Assembly: GCA_964506725.1 (NCBI GenBank)
Contig: CAZDLU010000002.1
Coordinates: forward strand, 44,538-108,537
Source of the DNA: an uncultured Rhizobium sp.
GTDB taxonomy: Bacteria > Pseudomonadota > Alphaproteobacteria > Rickettsiales > UBA1997
Direction of reading: 5' to 3'
DNA: 64,000 bases
Shown: in pieces, positions 14,635-56,695 of the stretch
How positions within the stretch are numbered: the stretch's first letter is position 1
Layout of the letters: the number at the start of each line of letters is the position of its first letter
Position numbers and translations under genes: made by a program
Notes under the pieces: model-generated
Seen by the model: the letters and a program-made list of their open reading frames with translations, nothing else
Told to the model about the DNA's origin: nothing
Databases searched by the model: none

Positions 14635-15346
14635 ACCAATCACAGCAGTTCACTTACCTAGAACTGCAAAAACTTCAATTTTTGAAAATCAAATAGGTTA
14701 CAAAATTTCCAACCAATATTTTAAAAATCTTTTAAGCAAAGAATCACCATTTGAAATATTTAAAATAACGGATTGCAATTTGGGAATGGCTTATGAAACC
14801 GCAAAAAGACTGCGTGAGACTCTTTCTGCAGAACAAAAAGCAAAGGTAAAATTTTTCTTTGAAGATACAGAATTACCGATTGAAGAGTTTACAACAAAAT
14901 CTTTACAACCGCTAAAATTTATTGATGTCGATGATGAAGCATTGGAATATGAATTTGCTGAAGAATTAGAAAAAGCAGCCTGGATTATCGCTGCTAAAGA
15001 TAATAAACATATAGTGCAAGGAATCAGGTTTTTTGCACCTCCAAAAGAATCAGCTAAAGAAATTGCCCCGCACATTCCTAAAATAAAAACAGATTTAATG
15101 ACAAAATGCGAATCAGGTTCGCTAAATGATGATGAAGCAAATTTACTTGTTGAAATGATCAGTAATTCTGAGGCAAAAAAAGGTATGACAAAATTTTCTA
15201 TAAAATTAAATGGAAGAGAGCCGCTATTTTTCCGTGTAATAGAAGGTAAAGTTTACGATGTAACTGATGCTATAAAAGTTAAGGAAAAAGATTTTGAAGT
15301 AGTACGCAAGCTTGCCCCAGTTGATCATAGCCGAATTATTGAGTAA
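14624..15346 (+). CDS. hypothetical protein
   Basis: 240-aa ORF followed by a strong terminator. I recognised no family. Confidence 0.5.
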   Translation: MRGRPITAVHLPRTAKTSIFENQIGYKISNQYFKNLLSKESPFEIFKITDCNLGMAYETAKRLRETLSAEQKAKVKFFFEDTELPIEEFTTKSLQPLKFIDVDDEALEYEFAEELEKAAWIIAAKDNKHIVQGIRFFAPPKESAKEIAPHIPKIKTDLMTKCESGSLNDDEANLLVEMISNSEAKKGMTKFSIKLNGREPLFFRVIEGKVYDVTDAIKVKEKDFEVVRKLAPVDHSRIIE

Positions 15347-15355
15347 AAATAAAAA

Positions 15356-15398
15356 GGGGCCAGGCTACTTTTACCCAAAAGTAGCCTGGCCCCTTTTT
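15356..15398 (+). terminator. rho-independent terminator
   Basis: ggggccaggctactttt-accc-aaaagtagcctggcccc is a perfect 17-bp stem followed by TTTTT. An A-run precedes it, so it is symmetric. Confidence 0.85.
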
Positions 15399-15448
15399 AT
15401 CTGACCCCGATCAATTACTTCCATTTCTAAAAGTTCTAGCATCATTTT

Positions 15449-16507
15449 ATGTTAGATTTTTTAGAAAATTCATCGCATTATCAACAAATAGCCTGGGCAA
15501 TAAAAATGTTTATCATAATTTTTATCTCCTTGGTTTTAAGCTATGTGGCAGGCCGCTTGGTTCGGAATTGCGAAAAGAAACTTTCACATAATAAAGCCAT
15601 TTGGGATGATTTATTGCTGCGCTCAATTCGTAAGCCCCTGATAAGCTTAATTTGGATTTTAGGAGTTGCGCTCGCCATCAATACAACAGGCCAGCATATT
15701 CGCGTTGATTTTTATAATTTTGTTTTAATATTTAAAAATCTCGGAATTATTTTTTGTATTGCCTGGTTTATTTGGCGAATTGTTGCCGAATATGAAAAAT
15801 ATTTAACTTCTGAAAAAAGCGACCATCTAGATGTTACAACAGTTGTTGCCATTACTAAATTACTTAAAATTGCCATCTTAATTACCACCGGATTAATGAT
15901 GTTGCAAAATTTCGGTGTCAATATTAACGGAATAATTGCTTTTGGTGGCATCGGTGGTATCGCCGTTGGATTTGCCGCTAAAGATTTACTGGCAAATTTT
16001 TTCGGAGCGTTGGTGATTTTTCTGGATCGACCATTTTCAGTAGGAGATTTTATTCGCTCCCCAGACCGCCAAATTGATGGCGCGGTACAATATATCAGCT
16101 GGCGCTTAACTCATATTTTAACGCCCGATAAAAGACTTTTATATATTCCAAATTCACTTTTTAGCACCATCATTATCGAAAATCTTTCGCGCACAATTAA
16201 CCGCCGCATTCACGAAGACGTAAGATTGCGTTATCAAGACATAAAAAAATCCGCAAAAATAATTGATGAATTGAAAGAATTTTTAACTAATCATAAGGAA
16301 ATAGACAAAACATTACCTATTACCGTGATTATTTCAAAACTTGATGAATATTGCGTAACGCTTGTAGTTGAGGCCTTCACCGGCAATATCTCTATTCCGG
16401 AATATAATGAAATCAAGCAGGAAATTTTGCTTAAAGTTGATGAGGTAATTTTAAAAAACGGCGCTGAAATTGCTTTGCCACGATCAGTGATAAATATTTT
16501 AGATTAA
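15449..16507 (+). CDS. mechanosensitive ion channel, MscS family
   Basis: Multi-TM N-terminus, then ANFFGALVIFLDRPFSVGDFI, which is the MscS beta-domain signature. Confidence 0.85.
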   Translation: MLDFLENSSHYQQIAWAIKMFIIIFISLVLSYVAGRLVRNCEKKLSHNKAIWDDLLLRSIRKPLISLIWILGVALAINTTGQHIRVDFYNFVLIFKNLGIIFCIAWFIWRIVAEYEKYLTSEKSDHLDVTTVVAITKLLKIAILITTGLMMLQNFGVNINGIIAFGGIGGIAVGFAAKDLLANFFGALVIFLDRPFSVGDFIRSPDRQIDGAVQYISWRLTHILTPDKRLLYIPNSLFSTIIIENLSRTINRRIHEDVRLRYQDIKKSAKIIDELKEFLTNHKEIDKTLPITVIISKLDEYCVTLVVEAFTGNISIPEYNEIKQEILLKVDEVILKNGAEIALPRSVINILD

Positions 16508-19500
16508 GAAATTATTTCAACAAATTCTCCTTCTTTTACCAATTCAATTTCTTCAGCATTACAAACATTTTTTAAATCTTCGCCAATTCTGGTTAAATCA
16601 ATTTCGGAATTAACCTTAATTTTTTTCACAATAGTTTTCATCGAAATATTTTTTTCCGATTTAAATTTACGCACCTCGAAAAGCACAGCCAGCGCGGCTT
16701 CGCCGATGTTGTAAGATTTCTGCTCGAATAAATAATTTTCTAATTTCGGCCAATTTCCGCGTGAATTTATTGATTTATTTTGCGCAAATTCTTCAGCAAA
16801 AATTGTTGCATAAATTTCTTCGCAGATATGCGGAATAAAAGGCGCGAAAAGTTTTAGAATTGTGTTTAAGCAAATTCTTAAAGTTAAAATTGCGCTTTGT
16901 TGTTTGGCGATAATTTCTTGTTTTTGCAACTCGCTCAACTCAACTCCCGCAAGCTTTTCCGCCGCAAGTCCGTAAGATCTAACTTTGCAAATTTCCAAAT
17001 AATTATCACAAAAATCTTTCCAGAAAAATTCTTCAATCGCTTCACGCGCACGTGCATATTCAAATTGCGCAAAACTTTCTGTAGCGCGTTTTACCGTTAA
17101 ATACAACTTCGATAAAATCCATAAGTCAGAGACTTCCGTAATGTCGTGCTTCGACAGGCTCAGCATGACATTACTGCTATTACCACTCAATTGTTTAATG
17201 TCACCCTGAGCCTGTCGAAGGGCGACATCACTCAGAGTTTCAAAATTCATCGAAGCAAATTTCGCCGCATTAAATAACTTCGTCACCAACTTCTGCCCAA
17301 TCTTAAAAACTTCCTCTGAATAAGCGGTATCCGCTCCCAAATGCGAAGTCGAAGCCCAATAACGCACAATGTCCGAGCCCTTCTCCTCAATGAGTGCAAC
17401 CGGAGTCACCACATTTCCTTTCGACTTACTCATTTTGGTTTTATCCGCCGCCAAACACCAACCTGAAATCATCAGATTTTTCCACGGAATACTAGGTTCT
17501 TCCCTCTCCTCTTGAGGGAGAGGGTTAGGGTGAGGGGTTGGTTTAGGCAAGCTGTGAAGATAAGCCTTAACAATCGTATAAAACGCCCAAGTACGAATAA
17601 TCTCGTGCGCCTGCGGCCTTAAGTCAGCAGGAAATAATTTATTATGGCGAGCGCGATCAAAGCTGATATCATTACTAATTCCTTTACTTGAAAGTTGCGG
17701 CGAAATCGACGAAGTCGCCCAGGTGTCCATGATGTCGGTTTCAGCCGTAACTTCATCACGCGAGTAACCGAGCGGCAAATCTACATTTGGATCACAGGGC
17801 AATTGCGAAACATCAGCCACTAAAATTTTTCCTTCTTCACCCACTCGCTTCGAATACCAAACCGGAAAATTCACGCCAAAAAATCTTTGGCGAGAAATAC
17901 ACCAATCCCACGATAAGCCGTCAATCCATTGTTCAATGCGCACCAACATATATTGCGGAAACCAATTACATTCCTGCGCTTTCTTTTTTAATTCCTCTTT
18001 TTTATCAAGAATTTTTATAAACCATTGCGGCACAACAAGAATCTCGATCGGCACGCCAGAACGCTCAGCACACTTCACCGCACGCGTAATTTTTTCCTGC
18101 TTAAGTAAAAGACTCGATCTTTCACCCTCCCCTTGAGGGAGGGTCGAACGCTCTGCGTTCGGGGAGGGGTCAGAAGAGTTCAAGTTTAAATAAATATCTT
18201 CCAACACCCCCGAAATATTTTTAAACACATCATTATTCCAAAATCTTAAAACTTTAAACCCAGCACTTTCCAAAAATTCCGTCCTTTTTTTATCATATTC
18301 CACAGCATCTTTTTCATTATGCTGCCCACCATCCAGCTCAATTACTAATTTCTTTTCAAAGCAAACAAAATCAACAATGTAATTTTCAATTGGTTGTTGT
18401 CTGCGGAATTTATAGCCATCTAGTTGTTTATTTTGTAGGTAATGCCATAAAAGTCCTTCGGCATTGGTTTGGTTATCTCTTAAATTTTGTGCATTTTCTA
18501 GAGTTTCTTGAGAGTAAAATCTTTTTGCTTTGAGTGTGTCTTGACCCCTCCCCGATTCGCTTACGCTCATCGACCCTCCCTCAAGGGGAGGGTGATTAGA
18601 TGGAGTGTTTTTTAAGGCTTCAATAATTATCTCCTTACCTTCCTTTAAAGTTTTTCCATTACCTTTATCATCGAATAAAATTTTGGCCTTCTCTATAAAA
18701 TTAGGAGCCATTAATTGACTATTATTCTGAGCATTGTCACAACCAATTTTAGTTATAGATTTCCAATCAAATCTACCATCCTTTCCTATAATAACACGCA
18801 GTTCTAAATCATACTTTTTCCACCATTTTATATCCGTCTCATCACCAAAAGTACAACACATCACCGCGCCCGTTCCTTTATCTAACTGCACTAAATCATC
18901 GGCAATAATTTTTACACGAACACCAAAAAGCGGCGTTACCGCAAATTTTCCCTGCAAATGTTTGTAACGTGAATCTTCCGGATGAACCATCACCGCAACG
19001 CAGGCCGGAAGTAGTTCCGGACGCGTTGTCATTATTTCAATTTTTTCTTCACTTCCTTCAACACCAAACAAAATATAATTCATGGTGCCTTCAACTTCCT
19101 TATCCACCAAATCCGCCTGCGCTAGAGCTGTGCGGTCTGAGATGTCCCAAAAAACCGGCTCGAATTTTTTTTCAACTAAACCTTTATTAAATAAATCAAC
19201 AAAAGAAGCTTGCGAAATTTTTTGTGATTCCGGAGAAATCGTTTGATATTTTTGTTCCCAATCTACAGATAAAGCGATTGAATTAAATAAAGCTTCAAAT
19301 TCTTTTTCCGCTTCATCTACTACTTCGCGACACTTGTTAACAAATGATCCGTGACCGTTTTCATGTTCGTAAACTCCGGCTTTTTTTCCGATAATTTTTT
19401 CTACCAAACGCTCAGTAGGCAAACCATTATCATCAAAGCCCATTGGATAAAAAACATCCTTACCGATCATTCTTTGAAAACGCGCCACAAAATCAGCCTG

Positions 19501-19683
19501 CGTATAAGAAAAAACGTGACCCATGTGCAGAAGTCCTGAAACTGTGGGAGGTGGCGTATCTATTACAAAAGTTTGGTCTTTCGGTAAATCATTTTTCCAA
19601 GCAAAAATCTTTTCATCCTGCCAATATTTTTGCCATTTTTTTTCGATTAGTTTTGTATCTAGTCTGTCTGGTAATTTTGTCAT
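16504..19683 (-). CDS. valS: valine--tRNA ligase (archaeal/Rickettsia type) with three in-frame repeat-derived insertions
   Basis: PPPTVSGLLHMGHVFSY (HIGH region), KMSKSKGNV (KMSKS) and TFGDETD (editing domain). 1059 aa in a single uninterrupted frame. Confidence 0.93.
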   Translation of the reverse strand: MTKLPDRLDTKLIEKKWQKYWQDEKIFAWKNDLPKDQTFVIDTPPPTVSGLLHMGHVFSYTQADFVARFQRMIGKDVFYPMGFDDNGLPTERLVEKIIGKKAGVYEHENGHGSFVNKCREVVDEAEKEFEALFNSIALSVDWEQKYQTISPESQKISQASFVDLFNKGLVEKKFEPVFWDISDRTALAQADLVDKEVEGTMNYILFGVEGSEEKIEIMTTRPELLPACVAVMVHPEDSRYKHLQGKFAVTPLFGVRVKIIADDLVQLDKGTGAVMCCTFGDETDIKWWKKYDLELRVIIGKDGRFDWKSITKIGCDNAQNNSQLMAPNFIEKAKILFDDKGNGKTLKEGKEIIIEALKNTPSNHPPLEGGSMSVSESGRGQDTLKAKRFYSQETLENAQNLRDNQTNAEGLLWHYLQNKQLDGYKFRRQQPIENYIVDFVCFEKKLVIELDGGQHNEKDAVEYDKKRTEFLESAGFKVLRFWNNDVFKNISGVLEDIYLNLNSSDPSPNAERSTLPQGEGERSSLLLKQEKITRAVKCAERSGVPIEILVVPQWFIKILDKKEELKKKAQECNWFPQYMLVRIEQWIDGLSWDWCISRQRFFGVNFPVWYSKRVGEEGKILVADVSQLPCDPNVDLPLGYSRDEVTAETDIMDTWATSSISPQLSSKGISNDISFDRARHNKLFPADLRPQAHEIIRTWAFYTIVKAYLHSLPKPTPHPNPLPQEEREEPSIPWKNLMISGWCLAADKTKMSKSKGNVVTPVALIEEKGSDIVRYWASTSHLGADTAYSEEVFKIGQKLVTKLFNAAKFASMNFETLSDVALRQAQGDIKQLSGNSSNVMLSLSKHDITEVSDLWILSKLYLTVKRATESFAQFEYARAREAIEEFFWKDFCDNYLEICKVRSYGLAAEKLAGVELSELQKQEIIAKQQSAILTLRICLNTILKLFAPFIPHICEEIYATIFAEEFAQNKSINSRGNWPKLENYLFEQKSYNIGEAALAVLFEVRKFKSEKNISMKTIVKKIKVNSEIDLTRIGEDLKNVCNAEEIELVKEGEFVEIIS
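17141..17228. repeat. Family A palindromic element, in-frame inside valS
   Basis: atgtcgtgcttcgacaggctcagcatgacatt ... aatgtcaccctgagcctgtcgaagggcgacat. Encodes ALRQAQGDIKQLSGNSSNVMLSLSKHDI. Confidence 0.85.
17500..17538. repeat. Family B half-element, in-frame inside valS
   Basis: ttccctctcctcttgagggagagggttagggtgaggggt. Encodes PKPTPHPNPLPQEEREEPS. Matches the arms of the intergenic copies at 27655 and 56612. Confidence 0.8.
18122..18595 (-). mobile_element. DUF559 (Vsr-like PD-(D/E)xK) endonuclease cassette with terminal inverted repeats, in-frame inside valS
   Basis: The outer TIR TCACCCTCCCCTTGAGGGAGGGTCGA (18122-18147) has its exact reverse complement at 18570-18595. The inner 12-mers at 18161-18172 and 18542-18553 are also inverted. 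474 nt. Encodes LLWHYL..YKFRRQQPIENYIVDFVCFEKKLVIELDGGQH..VLRFWNNDV. Confidence 0.8.
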
Positions 19684-19703: not shown

Positions 19704-19790
19704 AAAAAATCTCGTCATGCTGAGCTTGTCGAAGCATTGTGGAGCCGAACTCATGAATGCTTCGACAAGCTCAGCATGACGAGATTTTTT
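19704..19790. repeat. Family A palindromic element
   Basis: aaaaaatctcgtcatgctgagcttgtcgaagcat ... atgcttcgacaagctcagcatgacgagatttttt. It fills the gap between the bamB stop and the valS start. Confidence 0.9.
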
Positions 19791-21180
19791 ATTTCACCTC
19801 AAGCAAATCCACCACCCATTTTCCCATCGAATGCAAATAAATTTTTCCATTCACAACCACCGGACTATGATGAGTTTTGCTTTTAGTTTTATAAATTTTT
19901 TCAATTTTACCGTCAAAAGGTGATGCCATCAACACATCGCCGGCAACGCTTGAAATCACAAGCTTGTCACCCGCCATCACTACTCCCGCATAAATAATTT
20001 TCGTCTGCGGTTTTTTATCATTTTTATAATTAGGCAATTGCGAAATCCATTTTATGCCGCCGGTTTTTTTATAAACCGCGAGCAATTTATCATCATTATT
20101 AATCACATATAAAAACTCTCCCGCAGCCCAGAAATCAACGATCCCGGCAATTTCTTTTTTCCAAATATAATTACCGTTTTTAACATTAATCGCCATCATC
20201 AAACCACCATTACCAATCGCATAAATTACATCATCTTTTACCAAAGGTGTCGCATCAATATCATTCAAATAAAAATCAGAACTAGTAGCTTTACTTAAAT
20301 TCAAATCCTGTGACCACAAGGCTTCGCCGGTCTTTTTATCAACGCCGTAAATTTCACCGGAAGAATAAGTTGCAATCACCAAATTTTTATAAATTACCGG
20401 ATTGGCTGCGCCAAAAATTGCCGTTGGGCGCGTAACTCCGGCCTGCATCCAGCGCAAATTACCATTTGCCGCGTCAAGTGCGTAAAGCTTGTTATCATTA
20501 GTTGTAACATAAACCGAATTTTCATCGGCAATCGGTGCTGAAACCGGAATCGCCGAAATATCTTTTGTCCAAATTATCTCACCATTATTTGCCTTTGCCG
20601 CCACGATTCTACTGCTTCCGGCAATTGCAAAAATTTTATCATCACCACCTCCGTCATGCTGGGCTTGTCGAAGCATCGACTCATTTTTTTGCAAAAAAAT
20701 CTTCGGCGTTTGATAATTTTTTAAAAACTGACTTGGAAATAAACGCTTCTTAAAAATTCTTTTATCTTGTTTTATATCATAAGCAATTAAATGCCCGGAA
20801 GCGTTCAAAATAAAGGCTTTATCACCATCAAAAATTGGAGTAAAAACAAAACGATCATTAAAATTTCCGCTATAAAAATTCCAGGTAACAGCCGATTTTT
20901 TTAATGCAATTTCTCCGGATTTTTTATGCGAAAAATCCTTAGCAAAATTTTCAATACGCTGATTTTCATAAGCCACCGATCCGCTCCACAAGCTGTTTTC
21001 TACTTGTTTTGGTAGTTTAATTTCAACTTTGGCTAAATCTTCATCAACTTTAATTTTTTCAACAGCAGCAAAAGCCGAAACAGCTTTTGTCTTGTCATAT
21101 TTTTCATCTTCAGCACAAGAAACAAGTAAAAACACAACGGAAAATAAAACTGCGATGTCATGCTTAACCTGTCGAAACAT
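19789..21180 (-). CDS. bamB: outer membrane protein assembly factor BamB (PQQ-like beta-propeller lipoprotein)
   Basis: MFRQVKHDIAVLFSVVFLLVSC (lipobox). Repeated G.lyA.d...G...W blades such as NKLYALDAANGNLRW and GEIYGVDKKTGEALW. The start at 21180 lies inside a Family A repeat, and upstream in-frame ATGs also exist. Confidence 0.8.
   Translation of the reverse strand: MFRQVKHDIAVLFSVVFLLVSCAEDEKYDKTKAVSAFAAVEKIKVDEDLAKVEIKLPKQVENSLWSGSVAYENQRIENFAKDFSHKKSGEIALKKSAVTWNFYSGNFNDRFVFTPIFDGDKAFILNASGHLIAYDIKQDKRIFKKRLFPSQFLKNYQTPKIFLQKNESMLRQAQHDGGGDDKIFAIAGSSRIVAAKANNGEIIWTKDISAIPVSAPIADENSVYVTTNDNKLYALDAANGNLRWMQAGVTRPTAIFGAANPVIYKNLVIATYSSGEIYGVDKKTGEALWSQDLNLSKATSSDFYLNDIDATPLVKDDVIYAIGNGGLMMAINVKNGNYIWKKEIAGIVDFWAAGEFLYVINNDDKLLAVYKKTGGIKWISQLPNYKNDKKPQTKIIYAGVVMAGDKLVISSVAGDVLMASPFDGKIEKIYKTKSKTHHSPVVVNGKIYLHSMGKWVVDLLEVK
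20653..20680. repeat. Family A single hairpin unit, in-frame inside bamB
   Basis: gtcatgctgggcttgtcgaagcatcgac. Encodes ..ESMLRQAQHDGG.. within the propeller region. Confidence 0.8.
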
Positions 21181-21234
21181 GTGTTTGTACTTCGAGCTAA
21201 ACACATGCTTCGACAGGTTCAGCATGACATCGAG
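21153..21234. repeat. Family A palindromic element overlapping the bamB 5' end
   Basis: cgatgtcatgcttaacctgtcgaaacatgtgttt ... aaacacatgcttcgacaggttcagcatgacatcg. Confidence 0.85.
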
Positions 21235-27654: not shown

Positions 27655-27744
27655 ACCCCTCACCCTAACCCTCTCCCGCAAGGGGAGAGGGGAACACTCG
27701 GAGAATTCCCTATCCCCCTGAGGGAGAGGGTTAGGGAGAGGGGT
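27655..27744. repeat. Family B palindromic element (CCCTCTCCC-n4-GGGAGAGGG hairpins)
   Basis: acccctcaccctaaccctctcccgcaaggggagagg ... ccccctgagggagagggttagggagaggggt. The 22-nt lead-in atttacccctcaccctaaccct is identical at 56611. Confidence 0.85.
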
Positions 27745-28629: not shown

Positions 28630-28714
28630 CTCTGTGTCTTGCTGAGCTTGTGGTAGATTGTGTGTGTACTCATATGCAATAATCATGCTTCGACAGGCTC
28701 AGCATGACTATGAG
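28630..28714. repeat. Family A palindromic element with a degenerate left arm
   Basis: The right arm tcatgcttcgacaggctcagcatgactatgag is intact. The left arm ctctgtgtcttgctgagcttgtggtag is decayed. Ends 29 nt upstream of the tkt ATG. Confidence 0.7.
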
Positions 28715-30859: not shown

Positions 30860-30945
30860 CCCACAATCATACTGAGCTTGTCGAAGCATGTGGGTACAAT
30901 CCGGTGTTTAAACACATGCTTCGACAAGCTCAGCATGATTGTGGG
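30860..30945. repeat. Family A palindromic element
   Basis: cccacaatcatactgagcttgtcgaagcatgtggg ... aaacacatgcttcgacaagctcagcatgattgtggg. Confidence 0.9.
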
Positions 30946-39761: not shown

Positions 39762-39800
39762 CTCATAGCCATGCTTCGACAGGCTCAGCATGACTATGAG
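39762..39800. repeat. Family A single hairpin unit
   Basis: ctcatagccatgcttcgacaggctcagcatgactatgag. Ends 21 nt upstream of the yajQ ATG and causes the spurious 5' extension of ORF 39750. Confidence 0.85.
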
Positions 39801-44556: not shown

Positions 44557-44639
44557 CTCAATGTCATGCTGAGCCTGTCGAAGCATGATTCAAGCCTGTA
44601 CCTAAAATCATGCTTCGACAGGCTCAGCATGACATTGAG
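44557..44639. repeat. Family A palindromic element (best-preserved copy)
   Basis: ctcaatgtcatgctgagcctgtcgaagcatga ... atcatgcttcgacaggctcagcatgacattgag. Confidence 0.92.
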
Positions 44640-49352: not shown

Positions 49353-49442
49353 AACTTCGGTGTCATACTGAGCCTGTCGAAGCATGCGTTTAGACTAAGA
49401 GTAAAACACATGCTTCGACAGGCTCAGTATGACACCGAAGTT
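49353..49442. repeat. Family A palindromic element
   Basis: aacttcggtgtcatactgagcctgtcgaagcatgcgttt ... aaacacatgcttcgacaggctcagtatgacaccgaagtt. Ends 14 nt upstream of the nadK ATG. Confidence 0.9.
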
Positions 49443-56611: not shown

Positions 56612-56695
56612 TTTACCCCTCACCCTAACCCTATCCCTCAAGGGGAGAGGGAACATTCCGAGCTTTTCCCTCTCCCCTTGAGGGAGAGGGGTAAA
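56612..56695. repeat. Family B palindromic element
   Basis: tttacccctcaccctaaccctatccctcaaggggagagg ... ccctctccccttgagggagaggggtaaa. Lies in the divergent hflK/mrp intergenic region. Confidence 0.85.

Follow-up and report, generated by a model that had tools for sequence, protein, structure and literature searches.

A DUF559 nuclease cassette with structured inverted-repeat ends, in frame in an essential valS gene, as the probable autonomous member of a palindromic repeat family

How can a nuclease gene lie, without a stop codon and between inverted repeats, in the middle of an essential gene? The question is raised by valS, the gene for an archaeal/Rickettsia-type valyl-tRNA synthetase (ValRS), in a 64,000-nt stretch of DNA from an uncultured Rhizobium sp. 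(Rickettsiales, UBA1997, in GTDB; assembly GCA_964506725.1, contig CAZDLU010000002.1, positions 44,538 to 108,537; hereafter, the window). A first-pass annotation, made from the letters of the window, described a DUF559 endonuclease cassette in this gene and took it for a selfish element tolerated in frame, analogous to the Rickettsia palindromic elements (RPEs). Our analysis supports this view and broadens it considerably. We think it probable that the block is the autonomous member of a widespread selfish palindromic family, in which a DUF559 gene occupies the dyad centre of a structured repeat and spreads in a homing-like manner. What we observe directly is the architecture, the breadth of hosts, a series of alleles, selection on the nuclease as a protein, selection on the ends as nucleotide sequence and structure, and a predicted fold. 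Our confidence in the anatomy and in the selfish read-through lifestyle is high, and in the specific mechanism of mobility moderate to low.

The host gene and the parts of the element are as follows (HP denotes a hairpin).

16504-19683, minus strand: valS, archaeal/Rickettsia-type valyl-tRNA synthetase, 1059 amino acids, host of the insertion (listing of open reading frames [ORFs])
18112-18606, minus strand: whole element, 495 nt or 165 codons (extended imperfect terminal inverted repeat; comparison of empty, ends-only and filled valS)
18570-18595, minus strand: 5' (coding-sense) outer arm with hairpin HP1 (26/26 inverted repeat, hairpin scan, covariation)
18556-18569, minus strand: 5' second hairpin HP2, imperfect in the window copy (GATGAGCGTAAGCGAATC)
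18542-18555, minus strand: G-box, coding strand TCGGGGAGGGGTCA, one arm of the inner pair (14/14 inverted repeat; TCGGGGAGGGGT is kept in miniature elements)
18181-18504, minus strand: DUF559 / Vsr-like (EDxHD-type) nuclease domain, ValRS residues 394-501
18159-18172, minus strand: C-box, coding strand TGACCCCTCCCCGA, other arm of the inner pair (14/14 inverted repeat)
18148-18158, minus strand: 3' second hairpin HP2', GAACGCAGAGCGTTC plus flanking bases (comparison of end sequences)
18122-18147, minus strand: 3' outer arm with hairpin HP1' (18124-18144), encoding ..TLPQGEGE.. (inverted repeat, hairpin scan)

The product of valS matches the Pfam families tRNA-synt_1 (E=2.8e-76) and Anticodon_1. 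The block first described, 474 nt long (18122-18595), has no stop in the valS frame, and its outer arms, 18122-18147 and 18570-18595, are complementary at 26/26 nt, exactly where they had been placed. The rest of the first description needs only small corrections. The codon phase begins at 18594, an immaterial offset of one base from the 158 codons counted, and the inner inverted pair is real and perfect (100% match) but 14 nt long (18159-18172 / 18542-18555), not 12. The 474-nt block is best drawn as an element of 18112-18606, because the inverted repeat extends imperfectly for approximately 10 nt past both arms (ACTCCATCTAATCACCC / ACTCGATCTTTCACCC); the same extended terminus, CTCGATCTTATCACCC, is seen at a metagenome locus (L097) discussed below. 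In the window the outer repeat has no further copy at three or fewer mismatches (expectation 0 in 100 shuffles), and the inner motif has no second copy, none being expected by chance. HP1 occupies 18573-18593, with the stem ACCCTCCC/GGGAGGGT and a loop of 5 nt, and the 5' outer arm encodes ..HPPLEGGS... In an alignment to the Thermus thermophilus ValRS (1GAX), the insert and an adjoining variable stretch (query residues 311-523) face approximately 23 residues (306-328) at the C-terminal edge of the editing domain, directly before the return strand, which agrees with the placement given in the first-pass annotation, at the return from the editing domain to the catalytic core.

Is the insertion private to this genome? 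In a protein database search, an identical ValRS (P0121) and 13 more, 60-79% identical and drawn from independent NCBI, ENA, JGI and Logan assemblies, carry PF04480, the Pfam profile of DUF559, while dozens of equally close ValRS in the same search do not. The same junctions are found in the DNA of four other assemblies. By alignment, the insert site is identical in all 14 filled ValRS, and the inserts are flanked by the conserved peptides ..NTRSNHPPLEGGSK.. and ..STLPQGEG.., which are the translated repeats. Empty relatives exist, but the insertion is neither recent nor private. The opposite idea, of an ancestral segment that stands in relatives without flanking repeats, is refuted, as the ValRS that share the segment share the repeats, and close relatives lack the ORF or the whole element. 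An in-frame ATG at 18570-18568, proposed together with a Shine-Dalgarno sequence as an internal start, is present but not conserved; it is private to the window genome, the orthologues having AAG or GTG, and we rejected it as a feature of the element.

The valS alleles form a series. Besides the filled ones there are ends-only alleles, in which both end modules remain and the ORF is gone (P0127 and P0130; ORF-less valS loci L054 and L055), and empty alleles with the clean site ..K-x-Q/K-N-LLLKQEK.. (P0128, P0129, P0137, P0147 and P0234). A weak protein alignment suggests that P0132 may hold an eroded remnant of the cassette. The loci are orthologous because they are syntenic, the order folD-TPR-bamB-valS being conserved. 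We built a host tree from 786 ungapped columns; in one of its clades filled, ends-only and empty alleles intermingle, and two further, deeper clades are wholly filled. The insertion is orthologous throughout a Rickettsiales clade in which ValRS identity has fallen to approximately 66%. Host and insert trees are congruent at the level of the three major valS clades (r=0.79), and therefore the residence in valS has been long. Locally the two differ: clade-B inserts are only 48% identical to the others and their hosts 70-74%, and between P0145 and P0150 the inserts are 95% identical and the hosts 88%. The junctions of empty and filled valS are too diverged to define a target-site duplication. We also observe that the left modules are duplicated in clade B (P0145/P0150/P0173, alignment columns 420-470).

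What does the insert encode? The first-pass annotation had called the DUF559 domain complete, and the profile search confirms this: PF04480 matches with E=4e-44 and 149 bits (cut-off 20.6) over profile positions 3-108 of 109. The sequence also matches PDB entry 3HRL (E=3e-28) and NCBIfam PRK09767 (E=7e-33). D75, E86, D88, G89, H92 and R104 do not vary among 85-92 homologues, and D101 is conserved in at least 90% of them; all seven are present in the window copy. The catalytic constellation is in place, with an Asp on strand 2, the motif E-x-D-G-x-x-H and a downstream Asp/Arg. In the full-length AlphaFold2 model (mean predicted local distance difference test [pLDDT] 72) the DUF559 segment, approximately residues 390-503, reaches 83-93, and the segments encoded by the end modules (363-384 and 504-522) stay below 50. 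A model of the domain by itself has a core of pLDDT 90-96 with disordered tails and a restriction-endonuclease-like alpha/beta fold. Foldseek aligns it to the DUF559 protein 3HRL with a template modelling (TM) score of 0.88, to the catalytic domain of the intron homing endonuclease I-Bth0305I (3R3P) with 0.76-0.77 (E=5e-5), and to Vsr with 0.50. A survey of PD-(D/E)xK proteins in 2012 placed Vsr, DUF559, 3HRL and 3R3P in one clade (PMC3424549). The independent folding anticipated for the insert is thus what the models predict, a confident domain between two low-confidence linkers: the insert would be a nuclease on two flexible tethers, whose codons are supplied by the GC-rich repeats. NCBIfam, PADLOC and PHROGs give no functional name for the domain, and an assignment to anti-phage defence was rejected, the matches in PADLOC and NCBIfam being weak, sub-threshold ones to nuclease domains. 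The element holds no DDE, HUH, serine or tyrosine recombinase; its sole ORF is the approximately 110-amino acid nuclease, of a hydrolytic family.

We compared selection on the parts of the insertion by pairwise Nei-Gojobori estimates among five filled valS alleles. For the nuclease core, dN/dS (the ratio of nonsynonymous to synonymous divergence) is 0.06-0.13 and pS (the proportion of synonymous differences) is 0.63-0.87; for ValRS itself, the values are 0.06-0.18 and 0.51-0.75; for the end modules, they are 0.55-1.3 and 0.13-0.39. Purifying selection on the nuclease core is indistinguishable from that on ValRS, and the synonymous sites of the end modules are two to four times more conserved than those elsewhere. 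Selection thus maintains the nuclease at the level of protein and the ends at the level of nucleic acid.

How widely is the cassette found? We searched the 158-amino acid insert against one genome per species, which gave 52 loci from Alpha-, Gamma- and Deltaproteobacteria, Chloroflexi, Nitrospirae, Patescibacteria, Melainabacteria and others, and identified the hosts by open-frame analysis, translation and Pfam. The following host proteins were found (MITE denotes a miniature inverted-repeat transposable element).

RecJ (L002): in-frame cassette, with a 29-nt terminus nearly identical to that of the window
PriA (L005, L006, L021): in-frame cassette, in two lineages
HydF (L007-L009): in-frame cassette
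IleRS (L033): in-frame cassette
M14 peptidase (L012): in-frame cassette
RimM (L017): N-terminal fusion
TaqI_C restriction-modification protein (L097, a low-GC metagenome locus): MITE-DUF559-MITE, all in frame

In HydF the cassette presumably lies between the G4 and G5 GTPase motifs, by our reading of the translated sequence. The IleRS, from a Rickettsiales metagenome-assembled genome (L033:5047-9336), also holds a GNAT acetyltransferase domain (PF13302, E=6e-25, residues 911-1053).

An exhaustive profile-free search of 1.84 billion cluster representatives returned 27,300 DUF559 proteins. Of the 150 representatives closest to the insert, 72 are at least 300 amino acids long with an internal DUF559, and these span 55 Pfam families. 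Type I specificity subunits (HsdS) dominate (31/72, e.g., P0242, P0246 and P0250-P0252), and in all 31 the interruption falls at a single site of the central conserved region, following LFKSWFxDFDPVxAK; an inversion from arm to arm could switch such HsdS genes off. Other host families include EPSP synthase, PrmA, RecO, Mur ligase, NUDIX, YkuD and GHMP kinases. One further host, P0278 (847 amino acids), is a second ValRS of the archaeal/Rickettsia type, in which another cassette subtype lies at a different site, with the ends ..QPSPRGRGLSE..LPLPLGEGRGEG.. between ..DTWATSSITPQ.. and ..KLFPADLRPQAHEIIRTW... At orthologous sites of valS, hydF and priA the domain is stably retained. Indels and tandem duplications of the ends are multiples of 3, and every copy in every host keeps one open frame. 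End modules are amplified in tandem and in frame at two loci: three copies of a 48-nt unit make up the right end of L003 (6440-6600), and L009 has four to five copies of an end-module unit (5630-5810).

What do these cassettes have in common at their ends? In the valS type the order on the coding strand is HP1, HP2, G-box (TCGGGGAGGGGT), ORF, C-box (ACCCCTCCCCGA), HP2', HP1', with HP1 reading CCCTCCC-CTTGA-GGGAGGG. A sister type has the order C-box-HP1 / ORF / HP1'-G-box (L005, L006, L017). Among the valS orthologues, HP1 occurs as CCCTCCC/GGGAGGG, CCCGCCC/GGGCGGG and CTCCCCC/GGGGGAG (three covarying pairs, 100% pairing), and HP2 occurs, always at the same position, as the perfect hairpins GAAGTCGC/GCGACTTC, GAAGACGC/GCGTCTTC and GAAGGGC/GCCCTTC. 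Changes are compensated within each hairpin and are not mirrored in the opposite arm. In a count over eight left modules aligned by position, pairing holds for 94.5% of cells versus 40-48% when the partners are slid; 8/16 pairs have changed on both sides and 0/16 on one side only, and the covariation score is reached by 0/500 shuffles. G-U-type intermediates are absent, a pattern to which a constraint on DNA, acting on both strands, is no worse a fit than one on RNA. Pairing between the two arms was rejected as the conserved structure, since in L001, L056 and L004 the left HP1 is compensated internally and the right arm still reads CCCTCCC. The full palindrome is still the minimum-energy fold of ORF-less copies, and in a mini-element built from the window ends the two arms pair into a long hairpin of dG -58 kcal/mol. 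The ends are also mosaic: the left HP2 of the recJ cassette (L002) is that of L001, and the HP2' of the window is of the recJ type, unlike that of the valS orthologues L056, L001 and L004, which suggests exchange between copies. The 52 loci were selected by protein similarity only; no more than 200 nt from the ORF, 45 of them show a perfect C/T-run hairpin, and at 28 the ORF has such hairpins on both flanks. These hairpins reach 2.85 per kb near the ORF versus 0.055 per kb in the rest of the loci, a 52-fold difference.

The ends also exist without the nuclease. An exact 23-mer, CCCTCCCCTTGAGGGAGGGTCGA, the terminus shared by the valS, recJ and L070 cassettes, is found in at least 120 metagenome stretches, mostly of genomes of 58-69% GC. 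Among the matches listed there are 51 convergent pairs, of which 50 are 120-216 nt long without an ORF and one is a 509-nt cassette, so that ORF-less copies outnumber ORF-bearing ones by approximately 50 to 1 among those matches. The 509-nt cassette is probably degenerate, its ORF reading GGQP where the family has GGQH. Several copies occur in the same metagenome contigs (Ga0209579: L062, L121, L090, L107, L126 and L115). The miniature copies hardly vary in HP1, G-box, C-box and HP1'. HP2 and HP2' are hypervariable, even from one arm of an element to the other, with 104 unique sequences in 110 arms; a perfect stem of 6 bp or more is nevertheless formed by 81 of these 104, versus 0.6% of shuffles. 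The ORF-less copies fold stably (dG -34 to -68 kcal/mol, z -5 to -17). An ORF-less element with the exact 23-nt terminus is present on 20 viral or proviral IMG/VR contigs (L177-L196), some with two complete copies, and such contigs are a possible route by which the repeat spreads between phyla. A pattern-based scan of viral contigs found no close relatives of the nuclease. We infer that the 120-216-nt copies are miniature, MITE-like derivatives or targets of the element.

Is there a counterpart in a model organism? The only DUF559 gene of Escherichia coli, ycjD (b1289 in K-12), ends in an HP1-like hairpin and is followed, at the neighbouring locus L197 (NC_000913.3, 1351190-1351430), by ..CCCCTCTGGGGAGAGGGTTAGGGTGAGGGG.., a hairpin and G-box repeat that has an exact 22-mer in common with the window (17515-17536). 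Across all 5,426 complete genomes this 61-nt segment recurs as a dispersed repeat, the median being 18 places per genome. Between the two hairpins sits a partial duplicate of the 3' end of ycjD. The repeat adjacent to ycjD and fabI may belong to the family known as 'box C', originally noticed downstream of envM/fabI, an attribution to be taken as no more than a lead. The matching 22-mer of the window lies in the first of three further elements.

17497-17541, minus strand: sister-type half-element (C-box and HP1; PTPHPNPLPQEEREE), in frame in valS (hairpin and repeat scan)
27655-27744, unstranded: intergenic ORF-less sister-type miniature element (C-box - HP1 - spacer - HP1' - G-box)
56615-56692, unstranded: second intergenic ORF-less sister-type miniature element

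The half-element holds the 22-mer as GGGAGAGGGTTAGGGTGAGGGG (17515-17536), identical to the repeat beside E. coli ycjD. The sister-type modules of the window are the C-box ACCCCTCACCC, HP1 CCCTCTCCC..GGGAGAGGG and the G-box GGGTGAGGGG, and the ends of these elements match those around DUF559 in the PriA loci L005 and L006.

Other repeats were seen in the window. A second, unrelated miniature palindromic family, with the terminal repeat CTTCGACAGGCTCAG / CTGAGCCTGTCGAAG, occurs in at least 8 places (17143-17223, in valS; 19720-19774; 20659-20673; 21163-21222; 28642-28702; 30872-30933; 39774-39788; 44569-44627; 49368-49427). The valS copy is in frame (ALRQAQGD..VMLSLSKHD), and others lie in a bamB-like ORF. 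As this copy adds to the cassette and the half-element, valS holds three distinct in-frame repeat insertions. Between an ORF ending at 15346 and one starting at 15449, a perfect 24-bp stem with a 4-nt loop (15349-15400) is probably an intrinsic terminator. Rfam has no family at its gathering score in the whole 64 kb, hence no tRNA or known small RNA.

How, then, might such an element live and move? The first-pass annotation treated the nuclease as cargo. It is probably not passive: because it is the only protein consistently linked to the cross-phylum miniature-repeat family, it is the candidate autonomous partner of that family. The element is stop-free in one frame, which would let it survive inside essential genes of compact AT-rich genomes, and by landing in tolerant surface loops it would be borne by the host protein. 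The GC-rich end modules would translate into flexible linkers rich in Pro, Gly, Ser and Glu. Translation of the host gene would thus make the host protein with an extra, tethered nuclease domain and so express the nuclease; in valS it would hang off the distal edge of the editing domain. It is tempting to hypothesize that the nuclease recognises the hairpin and box sequences, which alone among the cis elements are conserved, and acts on ORF-less or empty copies by nicking or cleaving them, or cuts at the dyad centre. Recombination with a filled copy, in which the arms of approximately 50 nt provide the homology, would then repair the break, and the result would be a homing-like spread of the ORF among alleles and miniature copies. 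New sites would be colonised through a rarer, transposition-like step. The mosaic ends, the local incongruence of host and insert, the tandem amplification of ends and an enrichment among inversion targets are consistent with homing-like spread. The last of these is a published observation, DUF559 genes being enriched among predicted inversion targets with an odds ratio of 14.3 (PMC9881135), as expected for genes flanked by inverted repeats.

Several points weigh against this account. Nuclease activity, a cleavage site and mobility are putative for every member, and the expression of a chimeric protein is suggested by at least 14 maintained reading frames. A hydrolytic nuclease of 110 amino acids is incapable of strand transfer, and therefore insertion at new sites is left without a mechanism. 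The flanks of 34 ORF-less copies show no consistent target-site duplication, only a terminal preference for CA...TG or TA...TA. Because host and insert clades are congruent, long vertical inheritance with losses suffices to explain most of the valS distribution without homing. The solo miniature elements of the 64-kb window are of the sister type, not of the type that flanks the valS ORF. Finally, the ORF is also found between two complete miniature copies (L097) and two module orders exist, so that the relation of ORF and repeat is not one fixed structure.

The main rival to an autonomous element is that the nuclease is a hitch-hiker: the repeat would be moved in trans by an unlinked enzyme, and DUF559 would be a homing gene that invaded its centre, a parasite of a parasite. 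The position of the ORF speaks for such an invasion: it occupies the very dyad centre, the place of a short spacer, variable or palindromic, in ORF-less copies. The approximately 50 to 1 excess of ORF-less copies among the matches listed, the alternative MITE-ORF-MITE arrangement and the fact that the nearest solved functional relative is a homing endonuclease point the same way. However, no other enzyme is consistently linked to the repeat, the hairpins and boxes accompany the ORF at 45/52 protein-selected loci in many phyla, and the boxes of E. coli, Rickettsiales and soil bacteria agree nucleotide for nucleotide, which argues for recognition by a factor that travels with them. On balance we regard the hitch-hiking explanation as unlikely, if well short of negligible.

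Could the domain instead be immobile, the relic of one ancient insertion that was inherited vertically and domesticated, with the nuclease or the bulky loop gaining a function for its ValRS host? The clade-level agreement of host and insert trees, the stable retention at orthologous sites in valS, hydF and priA, and selection on the domain as strong as that on ValRS over saturated synonymous divergence all speak for it. Yet 55 unrelated host families carry the cassette, and close relatives function without the ORF or without any insert. A function at the protein level does not explain why the ends are conserved at synonymous sites and their hairpins compensated. In addition, the linkers are predicted to be disordered, and the ends are common to an abundant non-coding repeat. 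We consider domestication improbable, and clearly more so than hitch-hiking.

A third explanation is that the insert is removed before ValRS matures, by intein-like splicing, by excision from the RNA or by translational bypass through the long stem of the arms. The arms can indeed pair into a very stable hairpin (the -58 kcal/mol structure above), and the niche in essential genes resembles that of inteins. The first-pass annotation had noted that intein signs are missing, and the searches bear this out: there is no Pfam match to a Hint or intein domain, Rfam finds no intron or ribozyme in the whole window, and on these grounds all three were rejected. The junctions ..KN|TPSNHPP.. and ..GEGERSS|LLLKQ.. 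lack the Cys/Ser/Thr and His-Asn splice signatures. Moreover, every copy maintains one open frame, with indels and duplications in multiples of 3, a constraint for which there would be no need if excision of the segment preceded or accompanied translation. Removal is thus very improbable. An assembly chimera or annotation artefact, conceivable in a metagenome-type assembly where GC-rich palindromes are hard to assemble, is effectively refuted by the identical protein P0121, the 13 further ValRS from independent assemblies and the junctions in four others.

Taking the block as a selfish palindromic element with its own nuclease, we asked which known systems it resembles. RPE-type repeats of reduced intracellular bacteria add a peptide that the protein surface tolerates (PMC10969869, PMC5896051). 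RPEs and in-frame MITEs, such as the QMITEs of Coxiella, are likewise small palindromes, of approximately 100-150 bp in RPEs, in frame in unrelated, often essential genes. RPE-like behaviour is seen in L054 and L055, the ORF-less valS alleles, in the half-element at 17497-17541 and in L097. RPEs encode no enzyme and are not known to have a mobilising protein, whereas the valS element has an intact nuclease gene under purifying selection. Its repeat family extends beyond the Rickettsiales, to soil bacteria of 60-68% GC, E. coli and proviral contigs. The likeness to RPEs is one of lifestyle, and Rfam matched nothing.

Repetitive extragenic palindromic (REP) sequences and REPINs, with their REP-associated tyrosine transposase (RAYT, or TnpA-REP), likewise combine one small enzyme gene, bracketed by GC-rich hairpins, with dispersed inverted doublets. 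E. coli, with one ycjD and approximately 18 dispersed repeats, and the MITE-ORF-MITE locus L097 have such layouts. RAYT, however, is an HUH/Y1 transposase, and the enzyme of the valS element is a Vsr-like hydrolase of the PD-(D/E)xK superfamily. By inspection, with no formal scan made, the REP heads GTAG/CGTC are not seen here; the termini read (C/T)ACCCTCCCC.... Unlike REP/RAYT, elements of the valS type sit inside coding sequences and are translated.

With I-Bth0305I and the EDxHD homing endonucleases the element has in common the nuclease fold, the catalytic constellation, and the pattern of one precise site in a conserved gene with patchy occurrence and ORF-less and empty alleles. In contrast to them, it does not reside in an intron or intein, and it is read-through translation that rescues the host gene. 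The valS nuclease lacks the extended N-terminal DNA-binding region of I-Bth0305I, and structured inverted-repeat ends and miniature derivatives belong to the valS element and not to homing endonuclease genes. Inteins, too, are in-frame selfish insertions in essential genes, often with an endonuclease, but the valS insert has no Hint domain, no splice-junction residues and no sign of excision. E. coli YcjD and PDB 3HRL (NGO0050) are of the same DUF559 family and are free-standing, with their own start and stop codons. As a pair of an autonomous element and its MITEs, the system has shared terminal repeats and multiple copies, but its enzyme is not a strand-transfer transposase.

In the literature searched we found no description of DUF559 in inverted-repeat cassettes, of MITEs or RPEs that carry a nuclease, or of the terminal motif, and no function or repeat association reported for YcjD or 3HRL. 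The family is apparently undescribed, and it crosses phyla. A more general proposal, which we offer tentatively as something short of probable, is that DUF559 proteins, YcjD included, are the mobilising or maintenance nucleases of cross-phylum palindromic elements, which would make these a novel kind of mobile element with a Vsr-like hydrolase as its driver. This hypothesis is directly testable in a model organism, because E. coli has one member, ycjD, beside a dispersed sister repeat.

What would this mean? If the proposal is true, DUF559, a large orphan structural-genomics family with a solved structure that is not known to have been characterised, would gain a concrete, testable function. 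To our knowledge, the mobility of in-frame palindromic repeats has had no explanation since RPEs were discovered in 2000; RPE-like in-frame repeats, and the repeat adjacent to E. coli ycjD, would have a candidate autonomous partner. The predicted sequence- or structure-specific nuclease is compact and has conserved recognition candidates of 20-25 nt, which may be of practical interest. In-frame read-through with linker-coding ends would be a third strategy, beside introns and inteins, by which genes for endonucleases colonise essential ones, and it would allow a nuclease gene to inhabit valS, ileS, priA, recJ, aroA and the genes of murein ligases without any splicing machinery, provided only that it encodes flexible tethers of its own. 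It would also bear on how domains enter proteins, and on the 'fusion' architectures recorded in domain databases.

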